Numbered from the stretch's first letter, positions 2,696-49,199 are shown. The stretch is 64,000 bases of DNA from an uncultured Candidatus Binatia bacterium (GCA_965220195.1 CBDCPK010000002.1:42435-106434), one strand, 5' to 3'. Translations and numbers: made by a program. Notes: a model not told the origin generated them from the sequence alone.

Positions 2696-2926
2696 CTAGG
2701 CGCTGCGCTTCAGAAGCTCACGGAGACCCGCACTCTGCTCACGGAGACCCGCACTCTGCTCACGGAGACCCACACCCATGTCCTCAAGGGCTTTGGCCTG
2801 CTGGATCATCAAGGCGGTACTGGCCTCCCGGCTCGTATTACTTTTCCGCATCTCCCAAATGCCCCAGGCAATGATGCCGAGTTGCGCTATATAATAGCTG
2901 ATGGAGGCCCATTCGAATGCCGTCAT
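2696..2926 (-). CDS. small single-pass membrane coiled-coil protein, family member S1
   Basis: 76 aa with one N-terminal TM helix (IAQLGIIAWGIW), a basic patch and a coiled-coil tail ending LRELLKRSA. Contains a GLREQSA tandem repeat. Paralogous to S3-S6. Confidence 0.6.
   Translation of the reverse strand: MTAFEWASISYYIAQLGIIAWGIWEMRKSNTSREASTALMIQQAKALEDMGVGLREQSAGLREQSAGLRELLKRSA
2719..2772. repeat. 21-bp tandem repeat, about 2.6 copies (one heptad, GLREQSA) inside S1
   Basis: The unit cacggagacccgcactctgct is repeated head to tail. Confidence 0.9.
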
Positions 2927-3005
2927 ATTCTTTCTCTTGTCAGTGTTTGTTGACCACTCCTGAAAGTAGAGAACACCCTACGTCCTGTCAACGAGGAGAA
3001 CGCCT

Positions 3006-3329
3006 ATGCCCCCCAACCCCCAACCCCTCCGCCTGCTGCCCGTGTTGCTGGCCGTCGTCATGACCTGCGCCGGCTGTAGCGTGGTGCCGCTGTCGCTGTA
3101 TCAGACCCTGCCGTCCACCCGCATGGCGCTGGACGGTCTCGAAGAGGCGCAACGCAGCCTGGATGATACCAGAGCGGAGTATGCGGACAGTCTGGAAACG
3201 GCTCCGGCCGAGCGGTCGGTTGCCGCTCACGGCGCAACCCATAACGCCTATCAGCGCTGGGCGACGGACGAGGTGCGCGAGCTGCCGGACGTGTCGCAAA
3301 CCATCGCGATCGGAGGTGGGGACACCTAA
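3006..3329 (+). CDS. putative lipoprotein
   Basis: 107 aa. Hydrophobic N-terminus LLPVLLAVVMTCAGC with a lipobox-like AGC. Sits inside the Tad locus. Confidence 0.5.
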   Translation: MPPNPQPLRLLPVLLAVVMTCAGCSVVPLSLYQTLPSTRMALDGLEEAQRSLDDTRAEYADSLETAPAERSVAAHGATHNAYQRWATDEVRELPDVSQTIAIGGGDT

Positions 3330-3363
3330 AGGACGAGACGGTCTGACTGAGGAAACCAGGCAT

Positions 3364-3681
3364 ATGACAGAGTACGAAACCGCCAGCCTCGCGCTCCAAA
3401 CCGCCAGCCTCGCGCTTCAGCGCTATGCCGTTATCGCACGAGTGCTGATTGGCGCGGTTCAATGCGTGCTGATTGGCGGCGGGCTGTGGCTCATGAAAAA
3501 GGCGGCCAGCGCCCGGGACGCGCAACACCAGGAGGCGAAAGACCAGCATCGAGAAACCATGGTCGCCCTCCAACAGCAGGGTGAAGCCTTGCGTGCCCTG
3601 ACCCAAGGAGCGAACGACCGCCATCAGGAGAGCATGGCTGCCCTGCATGCCCTGATAGAGCGCACGGCTCCGCCGGCATGA
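3364..3681 (+). CDS. small single-pass membrane coiled-coil protein, divergent family member S2
   Basis: ATG at 3364 follows gaggaaacc. TM helix VLIGAVQCVLIGGGLWLM, then KK and a Gln/Glu-rich coiled coil ending ALIERTA. ASLALQ(T/R) is duplicated (21 bp x2 at 3379-3420). Confidence 0.5.
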   Translation: MTEYETASLALQTASLALQRYAVIARVLIGAVQCVLIGGGLWLMKKAASARDAQHQEAKDQHRETMVALQQQGEALRALTQGANDRHQESMAALHALIERTAPPA

Positions 3682-3751
3682 ATGGCGGCCACCGTCAAAG
3701 GTCAATCCGACACGGAGCAATCGGAACGCCGGGAGATTGAGAGCGCCGTCC

Positions 3752-4897
3752 ATGGAAGCGACCGATACCAGCAGTATCCTGGCCTTTGCAGCTGATGCCG
3801 AAACCGAACGGATGCTGAAAGGGGCGCTGGCCGGGCGCGAGGCCCAGGTACAGCGGGGGGATATGACCGCGGCCATTGAAACGCTGAGTTCCGTGGCCTC
3901 GCCCCAATTGCTGTTCGTTGACCTGGACGGCACCGAGTTTCCGACCGGACGGATTCACGAGCTGGCCGCGGTGTGCGAGTTCGGCACCGCGGTCATTGCC
4001 GTCAGCTCGAATGACACGGCCCGCTTCACCCGCGAACTGCTGGCCTGCGGGGTCAGCGACTATCTGCCCAAACCCCTGACGGTCAGCGATATTCATGACG
4101 CAGTGACCACGGCGCTCAGGGACGAGGAGGACGGGGCCTCTCGCCTGTACGCCGGACGGGTGATCGCGTTTGCCGGCTGCGGCGGCAGCGGGGCCACCAC
4201 CTTGGCGGCACTGACCGCCCTGACCGCGGCGACCCAGGGCAGCTATGTGTCGGTGCTGGACCTGGAGCGAACCGCCGGGGCCCTGCCGCTGATGCTGGAT
4301 GTGGAGCCCGCGGCGGGGTTTGAAGAACTGCTGGACCTGGCGGCCAAACCCGACCCGGACCCGAGCCTGATTGACGGGGTGCAAACGCGGATGGCCCCAA
4401 GAATCTCGGTCTATGGCTATCGGGTGAGCGACAGCCTGCCGGCCCCGCCCGAGGCTGAAGCCGTCCGCTGGCTGATGGAGCAGTTGGCCAACCGTTCCCA
4501 CCTAGTGATCGTGGACGGCCTGACAGATACCGACCTGCTGTTTTCCGTGCTGACCAACGCGGACGAACGGGTGCAGGTCTTTGAACCGACCATGGTCAGC
4601 CTCAACCGGGTCATCCGCCGTATGGCGCTGCTCGGCAGGGACAACTGGGGACTGCTGGTCGAAAACCACACGCGGGCGCGCAAGAGTACGCTGTCTGCGG
4701 AGGATATTCGCTATACCCTGGCCGGGCACGAGCCGGACGTGACCATACCCTTTGAGCCGGGTCTGCCCGCGGCAACCAATTACGGACTACCGGAACGGGA
4801 GTTCAGCAAAAAATACCGCAAAGCCCTGGAGACCCTGACCGGCCGGCTGCTGCGCCCGGCCATCTCGCTGGCCGATGCGGGACAGCCCGGCCCTTGA
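3752..4897 (+). CDS. cpaE: CpaE/TadZ-like pilus assembly protein (receiver-like N-domain plus ParA/MinD-like domain with degenerate Walker A)
   Basis: The position between cpaC and cpaF fits. The P-loop region AGCGGSGATT lacks the Lys. An alternative TTG start lies at 3737. Confidence 0.75.
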   Translation: MEATDTSSILAFAADAETERMLKGALAGREAQVQRGDMTAAIETLSSVASPQLLFVDLDGTEFPTGRIHELAAVCEFGTAVIAVSSNDTARFTRELLACGVSDYLPKPLTVSDIHDAVTTALRDEEDGASRLYAGRVIAFAGCGGSGATTLAALTALTAATQGSYVSVLDLERTAGALPLMLDVEPAAGFEELLDLAAKPDPDPSLIDGVQTRMAPRISVYGYRVSDSLPAPPEAEAVRWLMEQLANRSHLVIVDGLTDTDLLFSVLTNADERVQVFEPTMVSLNRVIRRMALLGRDNWGLLVENHTRARKSTLSAEDIRYTLAGHEPDVTIPFEPGLPAATNYGLPEREFSKKYRKALETLTGRLLRPAISLADAGQPGP

Positions 4898-4919
4898 AGC
4901 GCAGTGAAAGGGGACTTAT

Positions 4920-6362
4920 ATGCCACGCAATGCCTTCGGGCGCCGTCCCAAACCCATTGTCCAACCGCCCGCCCCAACACAGCCTGCCCCCAATTCGCCC
5001 GCTCAGGAGGGCCCGGTGCTCCAGGAGCAAGCCTCTGGGGCTGCTGGAGCCGACGCCTCTGAGCCCACTGTATCAGCGCGCCGCCGCACCTCGGACCGGC
5101 TGGTCGCCGAGATGGCGGCAAAAATACACCCGACGGTTGTGCAGTCGCTCGATATGTCCAAGGCCGCCGATCTGAGCCGGGACGAACTCGCGGTGCAACT
5201 CCAGTCCTTTCTGGACACCGAAGAGTCGGTTGCTTCGGACCTGACGCCGCTGGACCGCCGGCGCGTAGTACAGCGGCTGGTGGACGACATCAAGGGCCTC
5301 GGCCCGCTGGAGCCGTTGTTCAACGACCCGGCTGTCTCCGATATTCTGGTCAATGGGCTCGCCTCGACCTATGTCGAACGCAAGGGCAAGCTGGAGAAGG
5401 TGGACATCCGCTTTCGGGACGCGCAGCACTTGCTGAATATCGCCCAGCGGATCGCCAGTTGGGTCGGACGACGGGTGGACGAGGCCAGCCCCATGGTGGA
5501 TGCCCGGCTGCCCGACGGCAGCCGCGTCAACATCATTATTCCGCCGCTGGCGATTGACGGCGCGGCGTTCTCCATTCGGCGTTTTGTGGCCCGTGGTATC
5601 AGCCTGGCCGAGTTGGCCGAGCGCAACGCCTTTACGCCGGCCATGGGCCAACTGCTTCAGATCTGTGCCAAAGCCCGGCTGAACATTCTGGTTTCCGGCG
5701 GTACGGGCGCCGGGAAAACCACCTTTCTGAACGCCTTGTCGCGTGAGATCAACAACACCGAGCGGCTGGTGACCATCGAAGATTCCGCGGAATTGCAGTT
5801 GCAGCAGCCGCATGTGGTCCGGCTGGAAACGCGCACGAAGAGCGTGGAGGGGACAGGCGAGGTCAGCATTCGTGATTTGCTGATTAACGCCCTGCGGATG
5901 CGGCCCGACCGGATCATCGTGGGTGAGGTGCGTGGCGGCGAGGCCAACGAGATGCTCCAGGCCATGAATACCGGGCATCCGGGCTCGATGTGTACGCTCC
6001 ACGCCAATAATCCGCGCGACGCGCTGATGCGGGTCGAAAACATGCTGATGCAGACCTCGGGTGACATGCCGCTGCCGGCCCTGCGTCGCCAGATCGTGTC
6101 GGCCGTTGACCTGGTCGTACAATTGGCCCGCCTGCGTTCCGGCCACCGCTGTGTGACCAGCATTACCGATGTGGTCGGGATGGAGGGCGATATTATCACC
6201 ACCGAGGAAATGTGGCGGCGCTTGCCGGGTGAGGCGCATAATTTTGAGAGTAGCGGCCGTCAGCCATCCTGGATGGCCTCGGTCGACGCTGCGGGGCTGC
6301 GCGCCGAGTTTCTGGAGGTGCTCCAGATGGGTCAGGCGCACAACGTGGAGGCCGCAGCATGA
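4920..6362 (+). CDS. cpaF: CpaF/TadA secretion ATPase
   Basis: Walker A GGTGAGKTT, plus TIEDSAELQL and RMRPDRIIVGEVRGGEA motifs typical of the VirB11/CpaF family. Confidence 0.95.
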   Translation: MPRNAFGRRPKPIVQPPAPTQPAPNSPAQEGPVLQEQASGAAGADASEPTVSARRRTSDRLVAEMAAKIHPTVVQSLDMSKAADLSRDELAVQLQSFLDTEESVASDLTPLDRRRVVQRLVDDIKGLGPLEPLFNDPAVSDILVNGLASTYVERKGKLEKVDIRFRDAQHLLNIAQRIASWVGRRVDEASPMVDARLPDGSRVNIIIPPLAIDGAAFSIRRFVARGISLAELAERNAFTPAMGQLLQICAKARLNILVSGGTGAGKTTFLNALSREINNTERLVTIEDSAELQLQQPHVVRLETRTKSVEGTGEVSIRDLLINALRMRPDRIIVGEVRGGEANEMLQAMNTGHPGSMCTLHANNPRDALMRVENMLMQTSGDMPLPALRRQIVSAVDLVVQLARLRSGHRCVTSITDVVGMEGDIITTEEMWRRLPGEAHNFESSGRQPSWMASVDAAGLRAEFLEVLQMGQAHNVEAAA

Positions 6363-7393
6363 ATATCACGCTGACAGTGCTGGTCTGCGTGGCGGGGGTG
6401 ATTCTCCCCGGCCTGCTGGCCCTGCTCATTCTCGGCAACCCGCTGCTGAGCATGGTGATTGCCGGGGTGGCGTTTCTGATTGAGATTCCCTGCGTGTATC
6501 TGGTGGCTGTGTTCTGGCCGCAGCAGCGAGAGTTGAAACGCCGGCTGACGCGGGTCGCGGCGACGCTCAAGGGGGGCGCGCTGCCGGACGCCACCCCTGG
6601 CGGTCGGGTCAGCGTTTTCCGTAAGCAACGCAGCAAGTCGCGGCTGGTTGAGAGGCTGGAGCGTCAATTCCCCCTGATTGATGTCCCGCGGATGCTGCCT
6701 CGGGCGGTCGGGCTGGGCGTACTGGGCATGGTGGGGACAGGGTCGGCTGCGGCATGGATGGGCTTCGGGCCGCTCGCGCTGTTGCTGCTGGTGCCGTTTG
6801 GCGGGCTGGGATGCGGTTGGGTTGTGCTGGCCAGGCAGGACGGCGGCCAGCGCAACGAGTTCACCAAGATATTTCCTGAAACCACCGACCAGGTGGTGCG
6901 CCTGGTGCGGGCAGGCGTTCCGTCACTGGAGGCCATCTCGATTGTGGCTCAGGAGGCCCCGCCGCCGGTCGGGGGGATCTTGCGTGACATTGCCTCGGCG
7001 GTGGCCGCGGGGCTGGACCCGGAAACGGCCATTCGCAATGTTGCGGCGCGCGTCCGTATCCCGGCGTTTTCCCTGTTCTCTGCCGCGGTCTGTTTGCAGA
7101 TGACGACCGGGGGCGGTATCTCCGGTGCGCTTGGCAATCTTTCCGCGACTTTGCGCGCGCGCCAGGATGTGGCGCTCAAGGCCCAGGGTTCGACGGCCCA
7201 GACCCGGCTGACCCTGGCGATTATTTCGCTGGTGCCGGTCGTGGTGCTGATGACCCAGAACTTCACCAATCCGCAGGCGGTTGAGACCCTGTTCCATACC
7301 GAGTCGGGCAGCACCCTGCTCCGCTACGGGGTCGGCCTGATTCTGAGCGGGCTGCTGGTCGCCCGCAGCTTGTCGGCCCGGATTGGACGGTAG
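6359..7393 (+). CDS. tadB: TadB (type II secretion system F-family inner membrane protein)
   Basis: ATGA overlap with the cpaF stop. Polytopic membrane protein with a T2SS-F-like cytoplasmic domain. Confidence 0.85.
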   Translation: MNITLTVLVCVAGVILPGLLALLILGNPLLSMVIAGVAFLIEIPCVYLVAVFWPQQRELKRRLTRVAATLKGGALPDATPGGRVSVFRKQRSKSRLVERLERQFPLIDVPRMLPRAVGLGVLGMVGTGSAAAWMGFGPLALLLLVPFGGLGCGWVVLARQDGGQRNEFTKIFPETTDQVVRLVRAGVPSLEAISIVAQEAPPPVGGILRDIASAVAAGLDPETAIRNVAARVRIPAFSLFSAAVCLQMTTGGGISGALGNLSATLRARQDVALKAQGSTAQTRLTLAIISLVPVVVLMTQNFTNPQAVETLFHTESGSTLLRYGVGLILSGLLVARSLSARIGR

Positions 7394-7551
7394 GTGATGT
7401 CGCGGCATGTCCTATCCTATTCTATCCCCTCTCGGGAGGGGTGGATTTTTCGGACGGGCGTTCCGGGTACCCACCCCGGCCCTTCGGGCCACTCCTCCTT
7501 GGAGGGGAAGTTTTTCTGTTCGCCTGAGGTGATGCAATAAGGAGAATCCCC

Positions 7552-8517
7552 ATGATGTTCTGGCTCATCGCCATTATCGTAGTCGTCTGTCTGGCCGGGG
7601 TGGGGGCGCTGGTCTTTCGCAGCAGTCGGAATGCCCAGGTTCTGGACCGCCGGCTTGCCAGGGTGCGAACATGGGCTGTGGCCGTCTATGGCGAACCGCA
7701 GAAACGACGCAAACAGCAGGGCGGGAGTGTGTCCCTGCGTCTGGTGTCGCCCGCTCTGTTGAATATCTCGTCCCGGCTGGTGCCGGTCGGGGCAGCCGAG
7801 CGGGCCAAGCTGAAAGATGCGGTCACAAAGGCAGGGTTTCACCGGCCCGACGCCTTGTCGATATTCATGACAGCCAAGCTTGTGGTCATGCTGGCTGGCG
7901 GTGTCCTGCTGGGCTGGCAGCTCTCGGCAGGCCAGTGGCTCGGGGAATATACCTCAACGCCATTCATTCTGATGGCGGGCCTGGGTGGGGCGGTGATAGG
8001 GGGAATTCTGCCTGAGATGTGTTTGGACCGCCTCGGCGCCCGCCGGCAAAGCCGGATGGCTACGGCGCTGCCGGATGCCCTGGACCTGATGACGCTCTGC
8101 CTGGAATCCGGGTTGACTTTTGATCGGACCCTGGCTCGGGTAGCGCGGGAGTTGGAGTCTATGGCGCCCGCCCTGGCCCGTGAGTTCACGCTGTCCGAGG
8201 CGGAACTGCGGCTCGGCGCTGACCGCAAGAATGTGCTGCACGACCTGCACGTGCGGACCGGGGTGGAGGGGCTGCGCGACCTATCCACAACCATTGCCCA
8301 AGGCGAGCGCTACGGGACGCCGTTGTCCCAGTCCATGCGAAATATCGCCCACAGCGAGCGGCAGCAGCGGGCCGCCCGGATTGAGGTCCAGGTGGCGCGG
8401 CTGCCGGTGCTGATGAGCATGCCGATGTTGCTGCTGGTGACGCCGGGGACGCTGCTGCTGGTGGCGGGTCCGGCCTTTGTCTCGACCATGGAGATACTGG
8501 GCAATCTGGGCCAATGA
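7552..8517 (+). CDS. tadC: TadC (type II secretion system F-family inner membrane protein)
   Basis: Second GspF-like membrane protein after tadB. RBS aaggagaat precedes the ATG. Confidence 0.85.
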   Translation: MMFWLIAIIVVVCLAGVGALVFRSSRNAQVLDRRLARVRTWAVAVYGEPQKRRKQQGGSVSLRLVSPALLNISSRLVPVGAAERAKLKDAVTKAGFHRPDALSIFMTAKLVVMLAGGVLLGWQLSAGQWLGEYTSTPFILMAGLGGAVIGGILPEMCLDRLGARRQSRMATALPDALDLMTLCLESGLTFDRTLARVARELESMAPALAREFTLSEAELRLGADRKNVLHDLHVRTGVEGLRDLSTTIAQGERYGTPLSQSMRNIAHSERQQRAARIEVQVARLPVLMSMPMLLLVTPGTLLLVAGPAFVSTMEILGNLGQ

Positions 8518-9048: not shown

Positions 9049-9336
9049 ATGGAGGCAGAACTTTTACCGTTAGCGCGGGAGGCTGTAGCCGCGTTGCAAT
9101 TGCAGGCCGCTGCCGCCAGTCAACCGAACTGGGCGGAGGTCGCGGGCCTGTTCGTGAGTACCGTGGTCGGTTTTGGGCAGATCGGCTTGATTGCGTGGGG
9201 CTTGCGGCGGATGGGCAAAGCCTCTGAGGAGCGCAATCGCCAGCTTGACCAGCAAGCGGAAACCTTGGGCAAGATCGGTCAGGCGCTAGAACGCCAGGGT
9301 GAGGTGTTGGCCGAACTGTTACGGCGCACGGCGTAG
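9049..9336 (+). CDS. small single-pass membrane coiled-coil protein, family member S3
   Basis: Start chosen by alignment with S5 (MEAELLPLAREAVAALQ vs MDTEFLQLARETAAALQ). TM helix GFGQIGLIAWGL, then ERNRQLD and the tail ALERQGEVLAELLRRTA. Confidence 0.65.
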   Translation: MEAELLPLAREAVAALQLQAAAASQPNWAEVAGLFVSTVVGFGQIGLIAWGLRRMGKASEERNRQLDQQAETLGKIGQALERQGEVLAELLRRTA

Positions 9337-9480
9337 TGGCCCTTCGACTTCGCTCCGCCCTTCGGCTCTGCTCTGGACAGGATCAGGGTGAACGGGGGGT
9401 CTGGATTCCTGCCCCTGGCTTGACCAGGGGAATGACAGGCGGCTCCATGGTATCGTTATTTGTTTCAGATCGAAGGTCCG

Positions 9481-10956
9481 ATGTCCTCCTCTCAGTCTCA
9501 TAGCTCGGCCTTCTCGATTTTCTGCCTGCTGTGGGCTATTGCCGCGCTGCTGCACATTATCTGGGACACCGTCCTGCTCCACAATGCGCCATTCACAACG
9601 GTGGGGCCGCTGTCGGAGATAGTTCTTGCTCTGTCTGCTGCGGCCGTCATCCATCGTCCATCCTCGGTCCGGCGCCTCCTCATCCTGGCGGTCGTTCAGG
9701 TCCTGCAAGTCGGCTATCAGTTGCCGTATACCCCTAATCACTGGCTGCTGACGGGGTGCGTCAATCTGACGATCCTGTGTGCGGCTCTCGGCCTGAAAGC
9801 CCGTGCTTGGGCGTCTCCCCTCCGCTCCGCGGAACTCTACCGGACGTTTGCGCCCTCTGTCCGGCTTACGGTGATTATCTTTTACTTTTTTACCTTTTTT
9901 CATAAACTCAACGCGGATTTTCTCGACCCATCATCCAGTTGCGCCGTGACCTTTATCGGCCATATCACCGACTTTTTCTCATTGCCGTCCCTGCCCACTC
10001 TGGCCTCTCTCGCCATCTTTGTCACCTTGGGGGTTGAGGGCCTGCTGCCCATCGGACTGGCTCTCCCCCGGCTGCGGCTGCCGGCGGTGCTGTTGGGAGC
10101 CGGGTTTCACTTTCTGCTCGCCCTGGACATCGTGAAGATGTTCTACAATTTCTCTTCTGTGATGGTTGCGCTGTTGTGGGTGTTTGTCCCTCCGGCGGCC
10201 GCGGCTTCGCTGGCCCGGGTGCACCGCTGCCTTCCCAGGATTGTGCGGGGCACGCCGGTCTGGCGCAGCGTGGTGCGGCTCTTTTTCAATCGGTTTCACT
10301 TTCTGGCCGGGTATGTGTTGACGCTGGGGCTGTGCTGGTCGCAGCCTGACCTCAGCCTGGGGTTGAATATCGTGGGCTTCAGCCTGTTGTGGCTGGCGCT
10401 GGCCGGGACGCTGTTCGTGGCGGTGGGCTACGCCTGGAAGGCGGTCCGGAGGTCGGAGCGCAAAGAAGACACCCACCCCGGCCCCCGTATCAAGTACGGG
10501 GCAGGCTCTGCGGGCCACCCCTCCCTGCTGCTGCTCATTCCCCTGCTGGTCCTGCTGAACGGACTCGGCCCGTACCTGGGTCTGAAGCTGCGTTCGGCCT
10601 GGCAGATGTATAGCAACTTGAGCGTTGATGATGCCGGCTCAAACCACTTGCTCATTCCCCGCAGCCTGGATATTGGCGGGTTTCTGGCGGATTCGGTCGT
10701 CATTGTCTCGACCTCCGACCGTCTGCTGGACGCGCAGTATGTGCAAACGGGAGCGCGTATGCCGTATTTTGCCCTGCATACCTACCTCGCTGAGCACCCC
10801 GAGGTGGAACTTGCCTATATCCGGGCGGGGCAGTATCGAGAGATAGCCCGCGTCGGGGACAGTCCCGAGTTCAGCACCCGGCCTCATCCCCTGCTGCGGA
10901 AGGTGCTGACCTTCCGTCCTTTAGGGGAGCAGGCCGGGAAAATTTGTGACTGGTAG
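9481..10956 (+). CDS. polytopic membrane protein, possibly HTTM-like
   Basis: 491 aa with many TM helices, an NHWLL motif and a C-terminal MYSNL...SNHLL region reminiscent of HTTM/gamma-carboxylase-like proteins. Carries an in-frame palindromic repeat at 10471-10501. Confidence 0.55.
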   Translation: MSSSQSHSSAFSIFCLLWAIAALLHIIWDTVLLHNAPFTTVGPLSEIVLALSAAAVIHRPSSVRRLLILAVVQVLQVGYQLPYTPNHWLLTGCVNLTILCAALGLKARAWASPLRSAELYRTFAPSVRLTVIIFYFFTFFHKLNADFLDPSSSCAVTFIGHITDFFSLPSLPTLASLAIFVTLGVEGLLPIGLALPRLRLPAVLLGAGFHFLLALDIVKMFYNFSSVMVALLWVFVPPAAAASLARVHRCLPRIVRGTPVWRSVVRLFFNRFHFLAGYVLTLGLCWSQPDLSLGLNIVGFSLLWLALAGTLFVAVGYAWKAVRRSERKEDTHPGPRIKYGAGSAGHPSLLLLIPLLVLLNGLGPYLGLKLRSAWQMYSNLSVDDAGSNHLLIPRSLDIGGFLADSVVIVSTSDRLLDAQYVQTGARMPYFALHTYLAEHPEVELAYIRAGQYREIARVGDSPEFSTRPHPLLRKVLTFRPLGEQAGKICDW

Positions 10957-11024
10957 TCGGTGGATTGCTCGGGTGTCTCTCCTTGCCGGGCTTCACTCCG
11001 CCCGGCTGAGGACTGGCGGGCGAC

Positions 11025-11237
11025 TTACGCGCTGCGGCGTAACAGTTCCTCCAGGGCGCGGCCCTGGCGCTCGGCCTGCTCTCGCTGAGCAGCTTCCATC
11101 AAGTCAAGCTGGCGGTCACGCCGTTCTCCGCTCAGCTTCATCATCCACAAGCCTCCAGCAATCAACGCGCATTGCAGAAGGCCAACGCCAGCGGTCACCC
11201 AGACCTGCGCCCACATAGGGGAGATTTGCTGTTCCAT
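11025..11237 (-). CDS. small single-pass membrane coiled-coil protein, family member S4
   Basis: 70 aa. MWAQVWVTAGVGLLQCALIAGGLWMM, then ERRDRQLD and the tail ALEELLRRSA. Confidence 0.65.
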   Translation of the reverse strand: MEQQISPMWAQVWVTAGVGLLQCALIAGGLWMMKLSGERRDRQLDLMEAAQREQAERQGRALEELLRRSA

Positions 11238-11295
11238 ACCGCCCTCCTTCCAGATAAAGTCGACTCACCCGGCCAGCAAAAAAGAGACTCTGAAG

Positions 11296-12333
11296 TCAGG
11301 GTAAGAATACATTTTTCAACTGTGAGAGGCTGTTCTTCAGCGGTAAAAAATACAGGTCAAAACAACTGCGGTAGACCGTCTCTTGTCCGTCGCCCAGCCC
11401 AATTTGCAGCTTGCTGTTATCGTTGGGCAGACAGAATGTCCCGAAGACAACATCCCAAACCGGAAATATGAAGGCAAAATTCTTGTCGATGTGGTCGGGA
11501 TGGAAGCTGTGGTGGATTTGGTGATGAGCGGGACACCCGAACACATAAATCCATTTTCCGGGCCATCTGAGCCAAATATGAGAGTGACGCAGATTATATC
11601 CCAAGGAGTTGAACAGGAAAGAAAAAAGAGCGATGCCACAGATCGTCGGCGTTTCAGGGACATACCCGAACCACCACGAAATACACGCTCCTGAGAGCCC
11701 GACTGCGGCTCCATGGCCCAGGGCGTAGAAGATGTTATCTACCGGATGTTCTCTATAGTTTGTCAACGGATGCATGACGGGCGGAGAGTGATGAATTTTG
11801 TGAAATTCCCACAGGAACGGATTTTTATGTTGATACGCGTGTATGGCGTACGCAACAAAGTCGATGAGGAGAACGGCAAAGAGGGCGTAGATAAATTCCA
11901 GCACCCATGGAAATTCGGAGGCCGCCGGGGGTTTCTGGCCGCCTGCGCTCATCAGCCATGCGGAACTTTTCTGAAAGACCATGGTTGAGACGGCTGCCAG
12001 GAGCGCCCCCTCGTACAGAAGCACTCTGAAGGTCTGGTGAAAGAAAAAGTAGCGGACATCAAGCCACGCCGAGGCATGACTCCACACCTCTTTCGGGAAG
12101 AGAAAATGCCAGAGAGCGCTCAGCACGCTGGTGTTCTTGTCTCTTATCCTGGGGAGAGATCGAGAGAAGACAAACAGCGCGAACAGGAGAGACGTGAAAA
12201 GCCAGAGCACAAAAACTCTTTGTTCGGGATTAAACGGATAAATAAGGACGATAACAAACCGTTCAAGGAAAATTTCCCCCAGCGCTGCGATGACGTTAAA
12301 AACGCCGGATAGTGTCTCGTTCACACCGAACAT
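11296..12333 (-). CDS. fatty acid hydroxylase / sterol desaturase superfamily membrane enzyme
   Basis: Histidine boxes HAYQH, HKIHH and HHQIHH in a polytopic protein. GC is clearly lower than in the flanks. Confidence 0.85.
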   Translation of the reverse strand: MFGVNETLSGVFNVIAALGEIFLERFVIVLIYPFNPEQRVFVLWLFTSLLFALFVFSRSLPRIRDKNTSVLSALWHFLFPKEVWSHASAWLDVRYFFFHQTFRVLLYEGALLAAVSTMVFQKSSAWLMSAGGQKPPAASEFPWVLEFIYALFAVLLIDFVAYAIHAYQHKNPFLWEFHKIHHSPPVMHPLTNYREHPVDNIFYALGHGAAVGLSGACISWWFGYVPETPTICGIALFSFLFNSLGYNLRHSHIWLRWPGKWIYVFGCPAHHQIHHSFHPDHIDKNFAFIFPVWDVVFGTFCLPNDNSKLQIGLGDGQETVYRSCFDLYFLPLKNSLSQLKNVFLP

Positions 12334-12376: not shown

Positions 12377-12982
12377 TCAGCCGGCCAGGGAGCGAGCCAG
12401 CGCCGAGACAAGCGCCGCAATGGCCGCGGTGTAGGCGGTCATGAGCGTCACCATCCACTTGATGAGGCTGGTCCTGGCCGCTGCCAGGTCGGTCTTGAGA
12501 TTGGCTTCGACTTGGGCAATGCGCTCGTTCGTTGCCGCCAGTTCGGTCTTGAGGGTGGCTTCGACTTGGGCAATGCGCTCGTTGGTGGTGGCCAGTTCGG
12601 TCTTGAGATTGGCCTCGACCTGTGTGATGCGCTCGTTGGTGGTGGCCAGTTCGGTCTTGAGATTGGCCTCGACCTGTGTGATGCGCTCGTTGGTGGTGGC
12701 CAGTTCGGTCTTGAGATTGGCCTCGACCTGTGTGATGCGCTCGTTGGTGGTGGCCAGTTCGGTCTTGAGATTGGCCTCGACCTGTGTGATGCGCTCGTTG
12801 ATGGTGGCCAGCTCAATGCGCAGGTTGGCCTCGACCTGCGCCAACCCCATCCGGGTGGCCAAGTCGCCGCTGAGCATCTCGACCTGCTTCTCGGCCAGCC
12901 GCTCCGCAATAGGCTCGGCCATACCCACCGCCACCATGTCGCGCACGAACCGATGGGTGTCAAATACCAGCCGCTCGCTCAT
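12377..12982 (-). CDS. DUF1640-like coiled-coil protein with C-terminal TM anchor and 18-aa tandem repeats
   Basis: The N-terminus MSERLVFDTHRFVRDM is typical of DUF1640. Has a repeated ELATTNERITQVEANLKT unit and a C-terminal hydrophobic helix. An alternative ATG lies at 12994. Confidence 0.7.
   Translation of the reverse strand: MSERLVFDTHRFVRDMVAVGMAEPIAERLAEKQVEMLSGDLATRMGLAQVEANLRIELATINERITQVEANLKTELATTNERITQVEANLKTELATTNERITQVEANLKTELATTNERITQVEANLKTELATTNERIAQVEATLKTELAATNERIAQVEANLKTDLAAARTSLIKWMVTLMTAYTAAIAALVSALARSLAG
12484..12838. repeat. 54-bp tandem repeat, about 6.5 copies, central copies near identical
   Basis: The unit ggccagttcggtcttgagattggcctcgacctgtgtgatgcgctcgttggtggt is reiterated in the DUF1640-like gene. 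Confidence 0.9.
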
Positions 12983-13034
12983 ATGCCCCAGCATAAACGC
13001 TGGCCCGCCGGCGGACAAGAGCGCTCGGGACGGG

Positions 13035-13934
13035 TTATCGCGGCAGCAGCACTTCTTCGCGGTTCTCCCCACGAAAAATCTGCACCCGTACCGGGTTGGG
13101 GGTCGGGGGTATCGTTGCCGGTGGCGGCAGCAGGCGGTTGAGGCCGACTGGCGTGCGCCAGCCGGTGTCTGCGGCCTGGCCGAGGGGGCGCAGGGCGAGG
13201 GCCAGACTGCCTCGGGTGCTGGCCAGCACAAGCTGGTCGGCCTCCGGGGGGCGGACCTCAAGGGTCACGGTCGTGCCACCGTCCTGGGGGGGAGGGTCGG
13301 CCTCTAGCTCCGTATAGTTGACGTTCTCGATGCGACGGCCGACGGCGACCACGCGGAGGTCCTCAAGCACGGTTCTGCTGAAGGAGTTGAGCTGGCTGGG
13401 GTCATCTGATGAAACCTGCATGGTGAAAATGACATCGACCCGGTCTCCCGGCGCAATCATCCCGGCGTGGCTCGTCTCCTGGTCGACCGTGATGGTGATG
13501 GCCCGGTGGTCGGGCAGCAGAACCGCGGCCAGGAATCCGTCTTGCCCAAGGCGGATGAGCCCCGTGTCCGTCAGGGGCATCCCGGCCAGAAACGGGATGC
13601 GGGTCACGGCACCGATGACTGAAGGCGGCTCCTGTTCCTGGTCCGTGTCGGCCGGTGCTTTGCGGATATGCCCGGACAGGACGTTCTGGGCCTCCAGTGG
13701 CACATAGGTGAGGTCGCCCGCCGTGAGAAGCGTTCCGGCCGGTACGTTGCGCACGACGGCGAGCACCTCTACCGGGGGGATGACCGGCTCTGGGGGCTCC
13801 TCCACGATGGGCTCCAGCACCACGGTCTCCTCTTCTTCCGGGCCGAAATACAGCCACATGCTGACCGAGAGGGCAATGGCCGCAGGGATAATCCCCAGCA
13901 GCACAACGAGGATGAGGGTTCGATATCTGCGCAT
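13035..13934 (-). CDS. cpaB: Flp pilus assembly protein CpaB (SAF/RcpC domain)
   Basis: N-terminal TM anchor, then VLAVVRNVPAGTLLTAGDL, a SAF-like motif. Located next to the prepilin peptidase. Confidence 0.85.
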   Translation of the reverse strand: MRRYRTLILVVLLGIIPAAIALSVSMWLYFGPEEEETVVLEPIVEEPPEPVIPPVEVLAVVRNVPAGTLLTAGDLTYVPLEAQNVLSGHIRKAPADTDQEQEPPSVIGAVTRIPFLAGMPLTDTGLIRLGQDGFLAAVLLPDHRAITITVDQETSHAGMIAPGDRVDVIFTMQVSSDDPSQLNSFSRTVLEDLRVVAVGRRIENVNYTELEADPPPQDGGTTVTLEVRPPEADQLVLASTRGSLALALRPLGQAADTGWRTPVGLNRLLPPPATIPPTPNPVRVQIFRGENREEVLLPR

Positions 13935-30130: not shown

Positions 30131-30146
30131 GCAGGGTAGGTGCCCG

Positions 30147-37116: not shown

Positions 37117-37443
37117 TCAGCACATCAGGGAGAAGCTCAACTCGCCAGCGCTCTCCCCAGCCGTCACTGTGATCTCGATTGGACCGCCGCGGCACTGTCG
37201 GGAGATGTTGTAGGGCGACTCGCTAGAGCCCGCCACCCGCACTACGAGGTTCCCGCTACACGTGAAACTTTGTGTCGTGCCATTCGCCACATTGCTATAT
37301 GAGCTGTCCCCGGTACACTTGGCCTCGATTGCACCGCCGGAGGAGTTAATGAGATCATAATCCGCTGCCAAGGCGGGCGTAGCGACCAGGCACAGGCCCA
37401 GGGTCAGGGCGGCTATCGTGCCATACCTGTTTTGCTGCTTCAT
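37117..37443 (-). CDS. small secreted Cys-containing protein P2
   Basis: Near-duplicate of P1, with signal peptide MKQQNRYGTIAALTLGLCLVATPALA. Confidence 0.7.
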   Translation of the reverse strand: MKQQNRYGTIAALTLGLCLVATPALAADYDLINSSGGAIEAKCTGDSSYSNVANGTTQSFTCSGNLVVRVAGSSESPYNISRQCRGGPIEITVTAGESAGELSFSLMC

Positions 37444-37530
37444 GTTCTTGCCTCCTTATACCGGTCTGTGAATTGCCGACTCCCCTTCCGGGCTGATTTC
37501 AAGGGAAGATCGACACAGCGGCAGGTCAGC

Positions 37531-37869
37531 TTACGATGATACACATTGGTGAGCCAGGCTCAGCGTGTCGGCGCTATCTCCCGCCGTCACCGTGGTCGCC
37601 TTTATTTCATTGCTTCCGCAATCATTCGGAATTTCATATTCAGGGTTGCCTCCCGGTCGCTGTACAAAGGCCGTGCCACCGCTGCACGAGTAATCTTTCG
37701 TCTCGCCGTTCGCCGGCCAGTCGGTGATATTCGTCGTGGAACAATTCACCTTGACGCTATCGCCGGAAGAGTTGATGATGCGGAAGTCCCAGGCCAGCGC
37801 GTGCGCCGCGACCAGACACAGGCCAACGGTCAGGCCGGTTATGGTGAAGGAACCACTTCGCTTACGCAT
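37531..37869 (-). CDS. small secreted Cys-containing protein P3
   Basis: Same architecture: WDFRIINSSGDSVKVNCS...ANGETKDYSCSG...TVTAGDSADTLSLAHQC. Confidence 0.65.
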   Translation of the reverse strand: MRKRSGSFTITGLTVGLCLVAAHALAWDFRIINSSGDSVKVNCSTTNITDWPANGETKDYSCSGGTAFVQRPGGNPEYEIPNDCGSNEIKATTVTAGDSADTLSLAHQCVSS

Positions 37870-37924
37870 AACGTTTCTCCTTTCGTCTCTGGACGTTGAA
37901 GGCTGAGGTCACACATCTCCCCGC

Positions 37925-38245
37925 TCAAAATGTAGACTCCTCTGATATGCATTGGTGAGCTAGGTTCAGTGTGTCGGCGCTATCTCCCGCTGTCACCGTG
38001 GTCGCTGGAATGTCATATTGAGAGCTGCTTCCCGGCCGCTGTACGGAGGCCGTACCGCTACATGAGTAAAGTTGTGTCGTGCCATTCGCCTGCGAGGTGG
38101 TGATAGTCGCCGTCGAACAATTCACCTTGACGGTATCGCCGGAAGAGTTGGTGACGCGGAGGTCCCATGCCAAGGCGTGCGTCGCGACCAGACACAGGCT
38201 CACGGTCAGGAGGGCTATCGTTCTCCTCTTGGTCTGCCTCTTCAT
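37925..38245 (-). CDS. small secreted Cys-containing protein P4
   Basis: WDLRVTNSSGDTVKVNCS...ANGTTQLYSCSG...TVTAGDSADTLNLAHQC. First gene of the minus-strand cluster. Confidence 0.65.
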   Translation of the reverse strand: MKRQTKRRTIALLTVSLCLVATHALAWDLRVTNSSGDTVKVNCSTATITTSQANGTTQLYSCSGTASVQRPGSSSQYDIPATTVTAGDSADTLNLAHQCISEESTF

Positions 38246-38450
38246 TCCTTTATTCCTTTGCTCCTTTCGTGGATGTGGGGTGAGAAGGATATCTGCCCCG
38301 CCATATCAACCCCATTCCAGGCTAATGTCAAGGCTCAAAGTGGCCCGGTAGCGTGGCCGAACGGTCGCCCACCTTTTTCCGGGTGAGGCTTATACCGCCA
38401 CAGGAAAAAAGATATAATAGTTGTCAAACACCTCCTGTCCTTCGAACGTT

Positions 38451-44922: not shown

Positions 44923-44946
44923 CGATGTTGGAGGAGGGAGAGCCCC

Positions 44947-45114
44947 ATGAGACAGCAGGAAGAACCGAACATCCAGGGCGGGGACCGAATGCGGCAAATG
45001 GAGCTGTCCGCGCAGACCCGGGACGCTGAATAGCAACGCAAATGGCTGATGGAGAAGCGCAAGCCAGCAAAGGGCCGGCGCAAGCGCGGGCCGGAAAGCC
45101 TGAAACTCTTCTAA
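44947..45114 (+). pseudogene. paralog of the small basic protein at 59863, with an in-frame TAG
   Basis: MRQQEEPNIQGGDRMRQMELSAQTRDAE, stop, QRKWLMEKRKPAKGRRKRGPESLKLF. CAG in the 59863 copy is TAG here. It is followed by a remnant of the 60465 gene start (MPSTVIGVYAD), cut off by the kef 3' end. Confidence 0.6.
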
Positions 45115-45205
45115 GAGCACACCGCATGGATGGAGGCGGGAGAGCCATGCCCTCTACCGTCATCGGCGTGTACGCAGACCATAGTGAGCCACCTGTGCGC
45201 CCGGT

Positions 45206-47368: not shown

Positions 47369-47668
47369 ATGGCAGGTGCAACGACGAGAGCATTTGATGT
47401 CGCCGCCCACCTCGGCAGCCCCGAGGAGATCGCCGCGTACTTGGACGCCGTTCTGGAAGAAGGAGATGACAAGCTCTTGCTGGTGGCGCTGCGCACTGTT
47501 GTCAAATCCAAGGGGTTTACCACGGTCGCCCAAGGAGCGGGGTTACGCCGCGAGACCTTGTACCAGTCCTTCTCGGCAGACGGGAATCCCCGGCTGTCCA
47601 CCTTGAGCGGGGTGCTCGGGCAGTTGGGCATGCGGCTCAGCGTGACCCCACAGGCGAAAAGCGCCTGA
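47369..47668 (+). CDS. addiction module antidote protein (HigA family)
   Basis: FDVAAHLGSPEEIAAYLDAVLEEGD...GFTTVAQGAGLRRETLYQSFS.DGNPRLSTL is the typical antidote HTH. Confidence 0.85.
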   Translation: MAGATTRAFDVAAHLGSPEEIAAYLDAVLEEGDDKLLLVALRTVVKSKGFTTVAQGAGLRRETLYQSFSADGNPRLSTLSGVLGQLGMRLSVTPQAKSA

Positions 47669-47758
47669 GCGGGTCCTGCTCCTTTTGGGGGTCTAGTGTG
47701 GGGGCTGGCCCACGGCACATAAACGCTGTTATGAGTCATAGGAAGCGGGGAGGGCAGG

Positions 47759-48751
47759 ATGGACACAGCGATAGCGAAAGCCGCCCCGGCCGGGGGGACA
47801 GTCCCGGCCCGGATTGCGGCCGGCGTGACGCCGGCGCTCTTTGCCGAGACGCGCCAGGGCGCACAGCGGTTTTGGGAGTTCTTTGGGGCCAATATCCGCA
47901 ATGCCAATACCCGGATGGCCTATGTCACGGCGGCCTACCGCTTCGCGGACTGGTGCGAGGGGCGGGCTCTCGCCTTGGGGCAGGTCGAGCCCCTGCATGT
48001 CGCCCGCTACATCGAGCAGCTCGGGCGGGCGTATGCGCCGGCCACGGTGAAGCAAAATCTGGCCGCCTTGCGCCAGCTCTTTGACTGGCTCGTCGTGGGC
48101 CAGGTCCTGCGCAGTAATCCGGCGGCCGCGGTGCGCGGGCCGAAACAGGTGGTGAAAACGGGGAAGACCCCCGTGTTGACGGCCGCCGAGACGCGCCGCT
48201 TGCTCGACAGTATCGACCCATCCACGTGCATAGGGTTGCGAGATCGCGCGCTGCTGAGCCTGATGGTGTACGGCTTTGCGCGGGTGAGCGCGGCGCTGGC
48301 GATGCGGGTGGCGGACTATTACACCCAGGGCAAGCGGTCCTACTTCCGGCTGCACGAGAAGGGCGGCAAGTATCTGGTCATTCCCGCGCATCATAGGGCG
48401 CAGGCCTGGACGGATGCATATATCGACCGGGCGGGGCTGGCGACCGACCCGAAAGGGCCGTTGTTTCCGTCGGCCGGCCGCCGGCGGGGGAGCGACCGCC
48501 TCACCAGGCGGGCGATGGACCGGACCGATGCGTTGAAGATGATTAAGCGGCGCGCGCAGCGGGCGGGCTTGCCGGCGGAGGTGTGCGCGCACAGCTTCCG
48601 GGGGACGGGCATTACCGAATATCTGCGGGCCGGGGGTACGCTGGAGACGGCGGCGCGGATTGCCGGGCATGAATCGACCCGCACGACGCAGCTCTACAAC
48701 CGCCTGCCGGACGAGGTCTCGCTGGATGAGATCGAGCGGATTCATATCTAG
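47759..48751 (+). CDS. tyrosine-type site-specific recombinase/integrase
   Basis: 330 aa. SAM-like N-domain, catalytic region with GLRDRALL, HSFRGTGIT and HESTRTTQLY. Full-length relative of the fragments at 17985 and 19548. Confidence 0.9.
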   Translation: MDTAIAKAAPAGGTVPARIAAGVTPALFAETRQGAQRFWEFFGANIRNANTRMAYVTAAYRFADWCEGRALALGQVEPLHVARYIEQLGRAYAPATVKQNLAALRQLFDWLVVGQVLRSNPAAAVRGPKQVVKTGKTPVLTAAETRRLLDSIDPSTCIGLRDRALLSLMVYGFARVSAALAMRVADYYTQGKRSYFRLHEKGGKYLVIPAHHRAQAWTDAYIDRAGLATDPKGPLFPSAGRRRGSDRLTRRAMDRTDALKMIKRRAQRAGLPAEVCAHSFRGTGITEYLRAGGTLETAARIAGHESTRTTQLYNRLPDEVSLDEIERIHI

Positions 48752-48761
48752 GGCGGGGAGC

Positions 48762-48944
48762 GGGAAGGTGGCGGGCAAGGCCCCGCGCCCTTTTTTTTCT
48801 GCCTGCCTGGCTCTTGCCAGTCTAGCAAAAAGAATCCACAGTCAAGGGTACACTCCGCTGCGCTCCGCCGCTTCGCGGCCCTGGACTGCGGAGCCGCTTT
48901 TTTTGCTTTCCGGGTGAGCACATTTCGGCCGGAAGGAGGACCGT
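48762..48944 (+). promoter_or_regulatory. leader element copy L1 between int and S6
   Basis: Hairpin GTCAAGGG(48841-48)/CCCTGGAC(48879-86). Competing stem GCTCCGC(48862-68)/GCGGAGC(48888-94) followed by T7 (48898-904). Stem CTTTCCGG(48906-13)/CCGGAAGG(48929-36) covers the SD. Confidence 0.55.
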
Positions 48945-49199
48945 ATGGAAACTGAAATCATCGCTATGTGGGCGCAGGTCTTCGCAACGCTCGTCGTGGG
49001 CTTGGTGCAATGCGGCCTCATTGCCTGGGGCTTGCGGCGCATGGGCATAGCTTCGGCCGAGCGCAACCGGCAACTGGACGCGATGGAGGCCACCCAACGC
49101 GAGCAGAGCCGTACGCAGGCGGAAGCGTTGGGCAAAATTGGGCAGGCCCTTGACCGGCAGGGCGAAGTCTTAGCCGAGCTGCTTCGGCGTACCGCCTAG
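48945..49199 (+). CDS. small single-pass membrane coiled-coil protein, family member S6
   Basis: 84 aa. MWAQVFATLVVGLVQCGLIAWGLRRMG, then ERNRQLD and the tail ALDRQGEVLAELLRRTA. Confidence 0.7.
   Translation: METEIIAMWAQVFATLVVGLVQCGLIAWGLRRMGIASAERNRQLDAMEATQREQSRTQAEALGKIGQALDRQGEVLAELLRRTA

Follow-up and report, generated by a model that had tools for sequence, protein, structure and literature searches.

What are the small, similar open reading frames that recur along this stretch of a Candidatus Binatia genome, and do they serve the host or the mobile DNA around them? The first-pass annotation of the window (the whole 64,000-nucleotide stretch that was analyzed) claimed a six-member paralog family, and all six open reading frames translate exactly as it listed them. 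These are S1 (2696-2926, minus strand, 76 aa), antisense between the Tad secretin gene and a lipoprotein gene; S2 (3364-3681, plus strand, 105 aa), between the lipoprotein gene and tadZ; S3 (9049-9336, plus strand, 95 aa), downstream of tadC and after an IS982-like fragment; S4 (11025-11237, minus strand, 70 aa), carried by a 335-nt block (10963-11297); S5 (21418-21651, plus strand, 77 aa), downstream of a LAPAL-family gene; and S6 (48945-49199, plus strand, 84 aa), the second gene of an integrative element. A six-frame HMM scan of the 64-kb window detected exactly these six members and no further members or fragments, the next best match having E = 1.8. An independent HMM made from 102 outside homologues only, none of them reaching 80% identity to any window copy, recovered every copy (Z = 1e6), with E-values of 3e-37 for S6, 4e-29 for S3, 1e-28 for S4, 3e-17 for S2, 3e-16 for S5, and 4e-9 for S1. 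Pairwise BLASTP also links all six, with S1 and S2 as the outliers. By these sequence comparisons, S1-S6 are real members of one unannotated family, not a chance resemblance. Database look-ups returned no record of a gene with exactly the same product as S4 and none for a 945-aa open reading frame.

That the family belongs to no named one, as had been claimed, still holds: none of the six proteins matches Pfam, NCBIfam, PHROGs, or PADLOC above cut-off. Across all 98 aligned members, Pfam gave sub-threshold matches only, most commonly to DUF4381 (17 of 98 members; best window copy 20.6 bits against a gathering score of 27.2), which covers only the transmembrane (TM) helix and the helix that follows it. 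T2SSM was matched at E <= 0.01 by two of the 98, and S2 scores below its cut-off (20.5 bits against a gathering score of 27.8). A profile search of PDB sequences yielded nothing below E = 0.16, and the best matches in PHROGs, holins and spanins included, had E-values of 0.0026 to 0.18 scattered across unrelated families. The only name given to any member by any source is a JGI label, “YciS (DUF1049)”; this DUF1049/LapA identity was rejected, with no match from the six copies and 98 members even at E up to 10. Rfam searches of the whole window and of 48600-50000 were likewise empty. The family goes unmentioned in the Binatia literature, and that on Tad, TadZ, and coiled coils offered nothing useful on it. 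We also rejected a Flp/Fap pilin or TadE/F pseudopilin, since there was no Flp_Fap or TadE match at E up to 10 and S1-S6 have neither a leader peptide nor a G/XXXXEY cleavage motif; true Flp genes lie elsewhere in the Tad locus. A filamentous-phage coat protein has the same layout of acidic N terminus, TM helix, and basic C terminus, but this reading was dropped because the S stalk is long and variable in length. No gene of the Zot assembly type appears to be present in the annotated parts of the window.

An exhaustive search resolved the family into 542 clusters at 50% identity, nearly all shorter than 200 aa, which at minimum makes it a sizeable clade-restricted family that no domain library covers. 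The longer clusters that were inspected resemble read-through products. Within reach of the scan, all recovered genome loci come from Candidatus Binatia MAGs, and so far the family has been seen in uncultured Binatia alone; a scan of JGI metagenomes yielded just nine loci. The source organisms come chiefly from environmental and host-associated metagenomes. This confinement to Binatia, together with the synteny of S1-S3 with Tad genes in other genomes and the leader and trailer of S4-S6 described below, is new relative to the first-pass annotation.

S proteins are small bitopic inner-membrane proteins. An acidic N-tail leads into a single conserved TM helix, which is followed in turn by a basic patch, a helical stalk, and a C-terminal motif. 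The TM core, VGLxQCxLIAWGL, with a Gln at mid-membrane and usually a Cys right after it, and the basic patch are present as first described. A single hydrophobic helix had also been claimed, and a Kyte-Doolittle window with a hydrophobicity cut-off detected exactly one in 208 of 252 family members; the other 44, S1 (1.08) among them, fall under the cut-off. The E(R/E)RNRQLD motif, taken at first as common to all copies, is found in S3-S6 and is missing from S1 and S2. Family members end in ELLRR(T/S)A or LIERTAP (LIERTAPPA in S2), and the C terminus was described correctly save that in S6 it reads ALDRQGEVLAELLRRTA, with D replacing E. The (near-)invariant columns fall in the TM helix, just past it (M33, R40, and D45), and in the C-terminal motif; that the TM helix and this motif are the most conserved parts argues for specific partners.

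Because K+R residues are concentrated on the C-flank of the TM helix (mean 3.06, against 0.20 on the N-flank, and richer in 97% of members), the predicted topology is N-out, with the stalk and C-terminal motif in the cytoplasm. The cytoplasmic half of the earlier proposal of a cytoplasmic coiled coil is thus favored by flanking charge, but the coiled coil itself is unproven because the repeats are weakly hydrophobic, with one strongly hydrophobic residue per heptad, plus a Gly. AlphaFold predicts a single continuous helix over residues 2-83 (pLDDT 85). The stalk is built from a varying number of 7- and 11-residue repeats, and the spacing of Q[GS] in the family peaks at 7, 11, and 14 residues. 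In S1 a 21-nt tandem repeat (2716-2775, 2.9 copies) encodes GLREQSA units, S2 has a 21-nt tandem repeat at 3377-3416, and S4 is one heptad shorter than its nearest relatives. Stalk length differs even between near-identical strains: a single 90% cluster includes S2 alleles with lengths of 105, 112, and 123 aa, and the indels separating near-identical alleles are in frame and the size of a repeat unit.

Where do these genes reside? On the loci compared, S genes occur either as fixed genes of Tad (Flp) pilus operons or as integrase-linked cassettes of ~0.5 kb. The locus annotation bears out the placement of S1 and S2 within the Tad locus: the secretin gene (2-2542) lies upstream, and S2 is embedded in an operon (3006-8517, plus strand) with the lipoprotein gene (3006-3329), tadZ (3752-4897), tadA (4920-6362), tadB (6359-7393), and tadC (7552-8517), starting 34 nt past the lipoprotein gene and ending 70 nt ahead of tadZ. 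This slot is kept in three genomes (the window, L035, and L051). An S1 ortholog in L035 is unchanged in position and orientation, and S3 orthologs lie downstream of tadC in L012 and L015. For the transposase fragment said to abut S3, the match is IS982-like but weak and falls below cut-off (E 7e-6). Between the window and L051, identity is 81% for S2, 89% for TadZ, 87% for TadA, and 67% for the lipoprotein, and the Tad link is one of synteny across three fairly close genomes (TadA 87% identical). In L050 a further S copy follows an MshE-type T2SSE ATPase. Location in a pilus or secretion operon applies to S1-S3 and their orthologs and not to S4-S6, and many S copies are distant from any Tad gene; P0076 adjoins JAB and PagL genes, P0033 adjoins TonB-dependent receptors, and several copies adjoin LRR proteins.

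Gene neighborhood leads us to propose, tentatively and as a possibility that falls short of being probable, that S proteins are membrane-tethered cytoplasmic adaptors of the Tad machinery and that the mobile copies modulate it. The conserved TM helix would dock on a partner in the membrane, for which the TadB/TadC platform is a candidate, and the stalk would hold the C-terminal motif out toward a protein of the cytoplasm, for instance TadZ or TadA, with the number of repeats setting its reach. Copies on mobile elements would be diversified paralogs and would tune the Tad machinery, hijack it, or block it, for example in exclusion. In a bolder form, which we consider rather unlikely, S would be an unrecognized class of Tad (type IVc) inner-membrane component, a cytoplasmic stalk docked by its TM helix and engaging TadZ or TadA through its C-terminal motif; integrative elements of Binatia would have captured and diversified it as a portable cassette with which to turn the host pilus off or put it to new use, in exclusion or transfer. 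Should the Tad link prove true, the poorly understood cytoplasmic and inner-membrane organization of the pilus would gain a new type of component, and mobile elements would carry paralogs of a part of a host machine.

The cassette itself consists, in order, of a long hairpin, an SD box, the S open reading frame, and a trailing hairpin. Both S5 and S6 had been placed on an integrase-linked cassette. For S6 this is correct: it directly follows an intact Xer-like tyrosine integrase (47759-48751, plus strand, 330 aa), the first gene of the element, and is itself followed by SSB and ArdC. For S5 the nearby integrase (17974-18606, plus strand) is an internally deleted pseudogene, ~86-88% identical to 48024-48750, that lies ~2.8 kb upstream, beyond three intervening open reading frames; S5 does have a leader and trailer of the S6 type. 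The intact integrase scores 71 bits against Pfam Phage_integrase, and its best NCBIfam model is XerD-like (120 bits, below cut-off). An integrase followed by S recurs at L009, L010, L011, L017, L025, L027, L029, and L049, and the presence of the cassette varies between strains; the 335-nt block carrying S4 is missing from strains 96-98% identical. Homology between strains begins at a dif-like inverted repeat, CATAA-N6-TTATG (47718-47733, plus strand), which lies upstream of the integrase and has a single good copy in the window. An integron was rejected because the integrase does not qualify as IntI (42.7 bits against a TIGR02249 cut-off of 265), and so was integration at tRNA genes, of which the window holds none and the 22 loci scanned hold one.

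The S6 leader (48752-48944, plus strand) is 78-87% identical across genomes and contains a terminator-like hairpin with a T run (48771-48786), a second, long hairpin, H (arms 48823-48849 on the left and 48879-48907 on the right), with a variable loop and flanking A- and T-tracts, and an SD-proximal box (48910-48941). Its trailer (49200-49301, plus strand) is also conserved and includes a hairpin at 49207-49236. Homologous to these are the S5 leader (21243-21417, plus strand; arms 21307-21333 and 21353-21381, SD box 21383-21414) and trailer (21652-21757, plus strand; hairpin 21663-21692), and S4 retains a leader remnant with a T run and SD box (11238-11301, minus strand). The leader motifs are found almost only before S genes; one copy of hairpin H that lacks an S gene (20102-20184, plus strand) stands ahead of the LAPAL-family gene, and its stem contains a compensatory A-to-C/T-to-G change. 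RNAalifold supports the stem of H, with weak covariation (one compensatory pair in 14 sequences, plus the one in the LAPAL copy). Hairpin H is an imperfect inverted repeat whose A- and T-tracts are more in keeping with a terminator than with attC. A fold of the leader RNA as a whole was dropped (z = -0.56), which leaves H as the one supported structure. Repeated intergenic blocks past S6 were considered as ssDNA-promoter hairpins, a reading rejected because they fold no better than shuffles (z = -1.27). As a conserved non-coding element, the hairpin leader would be worth modeling.

Such a self-contained cassette, with terminator-like hairpins on both sides and a hairpin beside the SD sequence, invites a conceivable but doubtful alternative, namely, that integrase-linked S genes are “morons” encoding an exclusion factor, an abortive-infection effector, or a holin-like or type I toxin-like protein. 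The product would act on its own by perturbing the membrane or blocking DNA entry, and in the Tad locus S would be a domesticated or incidental gene. In accord with this are the position of S second in an integrative element, between integrase and SSB plus ArdC; the many copies, often in tandem and polymorphic in presence between strains; and the frequent toxin-antitoxin, restriction-modification, transposase, and LRR neighbors. Type I toxins such as Hok, Fst, and TisB are likewise small, single-TM, multi-copy, linked to mobile elements, and preceded by a structured leader near the SD sequence. They are short, hydrophobic proteins, usually <60 aa, with a cognate antisense RNA. S proteins, in contrast, run to 66-137 aa, two to four times the length of these toxins, and carry a C-terminal motif behind a long, conserved, hydrophilic tail of repeats; one subgroup is embedded in a pilus operon, where the conservation of S2 is close to that of TadZ. 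Rfam and a scan for promoter-like sites gave no sign of an antisense RNA or a promoter. The idea of a defence island or a toxin, raised among the checks proposed with the first-pass annotation, also gained nothing from PADLOC, which gave no match, from PHROGs, with no significant one, or from the scanned IMG/VR viral contigs, which held no S relative.

For the mobile copies only, an analogy is offered by the PfsE protein of filamentous Pf phages. Encoded on an integrated mobile element, this small protein crosses the inner membrane once, with a reported N-in insertion, and binds PilC of the type IV pilus machinery, thereby bringing about superinfection exclusion (PMC8764522). Its TM helix carries an aromatic AWGW cluster where the S family has IAWGL (PMC8764522), and it is 30 aa long and stalkless whereas S proteins are long-stalked. 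Homology was rejected at -1.7 bits against the S family profile.

If the topology were reversed (N-in/C-out), S would be a periplasmic spacer or ruler comparable to GspM, PilO, or Lpp-type length determinants, anchored in the inner membrane and reaching the secretin, the outer membrane, or the small lipoprotein. We regard this as improbable, although Tad-locus copies do lie between secretin and lipoprotein genes, stalk length steps in discrete units, and S2 matches T2SSM weakly (20.5 bits); against it, a strong positive-inside signal runs consistently through the family (C-flank K+R higher in 97% of members), AlphaFold shows no globular periplasmic domain, and T2SSM matches are rare and below cut-off. 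GspM (T2SSM) and PilN/PilO do resemble S in being small, in having a helical segment after a single TM helix, and in lying beside ATPase and platform genes in a pilus or secretion operon, with several paralogs per locus. They are, however, N-in with a periplasmic coiled coil, opposite to the prediction for S, and have a ferredoxin-like periplasmic domain where S is a single predicted helix with none. Tad systems are not known to include GspM/PilO-type components, and no Tad, type IV pilus, or T2SS component is known with the topology of S.

The 7/11-residue periodicity and single N-terminal anchor would also suit a general membrane-surface or stress protein of the YtxH, DUF948, or LEA type, unlinked to pili or mobile elements, whose amphipathic 11-mer repeats coat and stabilize the membrane to which the TM helix anchors them. 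Mainly environmental and host-associated sources and the many copies in unrelated contexts are compatible with such a role, but it too appears improbable, given that the YtxH, DUF948, and LEA families of Pfam go unmatched, that conservation peaks in the TM helix and C-terminal motif, and that the operon slot beside tadZ is conserved.

At the codon level, dN/dS is 0.06-0.42 in 14 comparable pairs, and the S genes are therefore under purifying selection as judged from these substitutions. GC3 > GC1 > GC2 holds for 20 S3-S6-type genes pooled and for four of the six window copies, with S4 tied and GC1 and GC3 reversed in S2. The conserved 3' end was rejected as an att site because the C-terminal motif is kept unchanged through synonymous substitutions. 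That the common 3' ends are recombination sites or gene-conversion tracts of the adjacent integrase, in open reading frames without function, is highly improbable and largely refuted, since dN/dS is well under 1, synonymous changes occur within the invariant C-terminal motif, indels are in frame and unit-sized, and S is not the candidate recombination site, a role that falls to the dif-like repeat ahead of the integrase, even if fragments of the integrase 3' end and leader are scattered over 18-21.5 kb and L010 has units in tandem that each combine an integrase 3' end with a leader and an S gene.

S is not the only small repeat protein of these loci. CCDC90-like/DUF1640 coiled-coil proteins (12377-13261 in the window; 6741-7103 in L051) recur in Binatia Tad loci and share with S a small size, one TM helix, and variable tandem repeats, but they belong to an unrelated Pfam family and have a mirrored layout in which the coil precedes a C-terminal TM helix.

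All six small open reading frames listed by the first-pass annotation are confirmed as observed: S1 (2696-2926, minus strand), S2 (3364-3681, plus), S3 (9049-9336, plus), S4 (11025-11237, minus), S5 (21418-21651, plus) and S6 (48945-49199, plus). Their translations agree exactly, at 76, 105, 95, 70, 77 and 84 aa, respectively, and searching all six frames of the window with the family profile returned these six alone, the next segment having an E-value of 1.8. A non-circular profile, built from 102 outside homologues that are each <80% identical to any window copy, matched 6/6 of them (S6, 3e-37; S3, 4e-29; S4, 1e-28; S2, 3e-17; S5, 3e-16; S1, 4e-9; E-values at Z=1e6). Two details of the plan originally described needed amending. 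The near-invariant C-terminus of S3, S5 and S6 reads ALDRQGE, not ALERQGE, in S6, and the ERRNRQLD segment is not common to all copies, an ERNRQLD-type motif being missing from S1 and S2. The structural interpretation offered there, of single-pass helical proteins outside named families, is supported.

Exactly one hydrophobic helix was detected by a Kyte-Doolittle window test in 208 of 252 family members; the remaining 44, S1 (1.08) among them, fall below the hydrophobicity cut-off. Lysine plus arginine averages 3.06 in the 12 residues C-terminal of the helix versus 0.20 N-terminal of it, and is higher on the C side in 97% of members. By the positive-inside rule, this asymmetry would place the short acidic N-tail outside and the rest of the protein in the cytoplasm, a predicted N-out, C-in topology that agrees with the cytoplasmic location already proposed for the coil. 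The stalk is built from 7-residue (ALERQGx) and 11-residue (AMTQAFTQQGx, ALERQGQTLGQ) units, with Q[GS]-to-Q[GS] spacings that peak at 7, 11 and 14, and members range from 66 to 137 aa purely through the number of units. These units are still turning over: 21-nt tandem repeats are present in S1 (2.9 copies) and S2 (1.9 copies), S4 is exactly one heptad shorter than the member at L011 (L numbers denote comparison loci in other genomes), and S2 alleles of 105, 112 and 123 aa within one 90%-identity cluster differ by blocks of 7 and 18 aa. AlphaFold2, run with a 98-sequence alignment, predicted residues 2-83 as one unbroken helix (mean pLDDT 85); the coiled coil originally described we regard as unproven because each heptad carries a glycine and a single strongly hydrophobic residue.

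The family to which these proteins belong is large. At least 945 clusters at 90% identity were recovered by a word-indexed search, all unnamed except two with the JGI label "YciS (DUF1049)", and an exhaustive profile search (E<=1e-3) gave 542 clusters at 50% identity, nearly all of them <200 aa; the longer ones, where read, resemble read-through or frameshift products. Searches of Pfam, NCBIfam, PHROGs, PADLOC and the PDB returned zero matches above threshold, which bears out the earlier statement that no named family could be assigned, and relatives were not found among IMG/VR viral contigs. In a motif-seeded scan of one genome per species, 24 of the 25 loci were labelled Candidatus Binatia or Binatota and one Thermodesulfobacteriota; the seed motif was narrow, and "Binatia only" applies within reach of that scan. 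Several copies per genome occur, often in tandem (three in L018, four in L025 and two in L010). By role and by the position of their genes, GspM and PilN/PilO come closest among known proteins, and membership among them is ruled out because their Pfam model is matched only rarely and below threshold, the topology is predicted to run the other way, and no globular domain is present. Flp pilin, DUF1049/LapA and DUF4381 identities were rejected by Pfam searches, and a PHROG holin or spanin identity by the PHROGs search. The S proteins belong to a familiar broad class, that of short bitopic helical proteins found in membranes alongside envelope machines and mobile elements, and lie outside every described family; they form an unannotated family, clade-restricted as far as the scan could see, whose modular plan is clear and which recurs in two genomic settings.

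One of these settings is the operon for the Tad pilus. A Tad/Flp locus fills the leftmost 14 kb of the window and encodes a secretin, a TadZ-like ATPase, TadA, TadB, TadC, RcpC and a prepilin peptidase, and both S1 and S2 lie inside it, as had been noted. S2 starts 34 nt 3' of the gene for a 107-aa lipoprotein and ends 70 nt 5' of tadZ, and the order lipoprotein, S2-type gene, tadZ, tadA recurs in two other genomes, OY763426.1 (L035) and L051. In a comparison of the window with L051, genomes that are not very distant from each other, identity is 81% for S2, 89% for TadZ, 87% for TadA and 67% for the lipoprotein, so S2 is constrained about as much as the core machine. The antisense S1 has an ortholog at the matching place in L035, and S3-type genes come after tadC in L012 and L015.

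Other genes recur around these loci. One for a ~500-aa polytopic membrane protein with no Pfam or NCBIfam match (9460-10956, plus strand) follows the S3-type gene in the window, in L012 and in the L001-L004 strains; a 515-aa gene follows tadC in L035, and a true HTTM-domain protein is encoded nearby in the window at 15213-16793. The gene at 12377-13261 (minus strand) encodes a CCDC90-like/DUF1640 protein in which a coiled coil precedes a C-terminal TM helix, contains a 54-nt tandem repeat (12483-12811; 6.1 copies; 18-aa units), and has a counterpart of only 133 aa in a related strain. In L051, a further DUF1640 gene comes after the one for the secretin, so these proteins are a second family of small coiled-coil membrane proteins in the Tad loci of Binatia.

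The other setting is mobile. S5 and S6 had both been assigned to an integrase-linked cassette; this holds for S6, which directly follows the gene for a 330-aa Xer-like integrase, but not for S5, where the nearby integrase (17974-18606, plus strand) is a pseudogene ~2.8 kb away. The succession of integrase, leader and S gene is repeated in at least eight loci besides the window, and SSB and/or ArdC come next after S in the window, L010, L017 and L025. Inter-strain homology begins ~40-60 nt 5' of the integrase gene, the DNA to the left is strain-specific, and core genes directly adjoin the integrase in L049; S is therefore second in gene order, at one end of an integrative element. The inverted repeat CATAA-ACGCTG-TTATG (47718-47733), which is dif-like, lies ~25 nt 5' of the integrase gene, where this homology begins, and is kept as CATAA-N6-TTATG in nine loci, and is therefore likely to be the recombination core or operator of the element. 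There is no second good copy of the repeat within the window, and no conjugation genes were seen in its annotated parts. An integron cassette system was rejected for S and its integrase.

S6 and S5, and partly S4, have in common a non-coding leader of ~190 nt and a trailer of ~100 nt. Leader identity is 78-87% across genomes, with dS of 0.45-0.8 for the corresponding S proteins. The leader comprises a terminator-like hairpin 3' of the integrase gene; a long hairpin, H (arms 48823-48849 and 48879-48907 before S6, and 21307-21333 and 21353-21381 before S5), whose conserved arms, TAGCAAAAAGAATCCACAGTCAAGGGT and CCCTTGACTGCGGAGCCTCTTTTTTTGCT, enclose a loop that varies and are flanked by A- and T-tracts; and a box ending in an SD sequence. 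A promoter-like site was looked for in the leader and not found. These motifs and the trailing hairpin are found almost only beside S genes, the exception being a copy of hairpin H before the gene at 20240-21184 (plus strand), which shows a compensatory stem change; apart from this change, covariation support for the hairpin is thin. That gene, flanked by two hairpin H copies just 5' of S5, encodes a 314-aa protein matching NCBIfam NF053583, "LAPAL motif-containing putative phage structural protein," at 166 bits (cut-off 60). The cassettes come and go, since a 335-nt block bearing S4 (10963-11297) is missing from strains that are 96-98% identical, and the 18-21.7 kb stretch holds the integrase pseudogene together with scattered fragments of the integrase 3' end and leader. 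In place of the S4 block, L001, L003 and L004 have ~0.9 kb of sequence that is unrelated to it and includes IS-like HTH fragments. An extra IS is present in L033 at the point corresponding to 20220.

Conserved position in the Tad operon is the only functional clue, and on the basis of this synteny, which makes the Tad link suggestive, we tentatively favor reading the S protein as an adaptor of the Tad machine, tethered to the membrane and working in the cytoplasm. Its conserved TM helix would dock on a membrane partner, for which the TadB/TadC platform is the obvious candidate, and the stalk would offer the C-terminal motif, at a fixed distance, to a partner in the cytoplasm, for example TadZ or TadA. 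Mobile copies would then be diversified paralogs that tune that machine or block it, by analogy only with PfsE of Pf phages, a 30-aa inner-membrane protein of unrelated sequence that binds PilC and leads to superinfection exclusion (PMC8764522). It is unlikely that the cassette copies have an autonomous moron, exclusion or toxin role; they resemble type I toxins in being small, single-TM, multi-copy and mobile-linked, but differ from them in size and in having a conserved tail. A reversed topology, with the stalk as a periplasmic spacer, is improbable given the charge bias across the helix. A general membrane-coating stress protein is an equally poor prospect; alignment columns with little or no variation are concentrated in the TM helix (Q22, I26, G29, L30), immediately behind it (M33, R40, D45) and within the final dozen residues, suggesting that the membrane segment and the tip each have specific partners. 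Probability left over from the adaptor reading and its rivals belongs to something else. The hosts are uncultured, the Tad link is by synteny, and the adaptor mechanism is a proposal.

That the similarity is a DNA-level artefact is very improbable, this explanation being largely refuted by dN/dS and codon-position GC, and the family members are genes. In 14 ortholog or paralog pairs of measurable divergence, dN/dS is 0.06-0.42. Pooled over the 20 S3-S6-type genes analysed, GC at codon positions 1/2/3 is 0.70/0.44/0.78, the order (3 > 1 > 2) that a real coding frame should show when the genome is GC-rich; of the six copies in the window, four share it, positions 1 and 3 tie in S4, and position 1 is slightly higher in S2. 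Further, the DNA encoding the invariant C-terminal peptide of S3, S5 and S6 carries many synonymous differences, which argues for selection on the protein rather than on a DNA site.

The integrative element also contains intergenic blocks of 110-200 nt that are 84-89% identical (49450-49647, 55368-55565, 59354-59466 and 59480-59588; also 49636-49755 and 57422-57541), some of them in the 750 nt that separate S6 from SSB; as single-stranded DNA, their predicted folds are no better than those of shuffled sequences. A 213-nt block occurs both left of the integrase (44932-45144) and in the right part of the element (59848-60060). A DUF3800 gene (30134-31144, matching L005 7746-8756) has a second copy, which adjoins the integrase in a related strain. 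The 1465-aa leucine-rich-repeat protein encoded at 23753-28150 (plus strand) has long internal repeats of 72, 144 and 468 nt, and at seven or more other loci a related protein is encoded within a few kilobases of an S gene. Four tandem paralogous small genes (36662-38335, minus strand; ~108-115 aa; no Pfam match), with 69-86% DNA identity between neighbours, separate the gene for a TonB-dependent receptor from an outer-membrane efflux operon.
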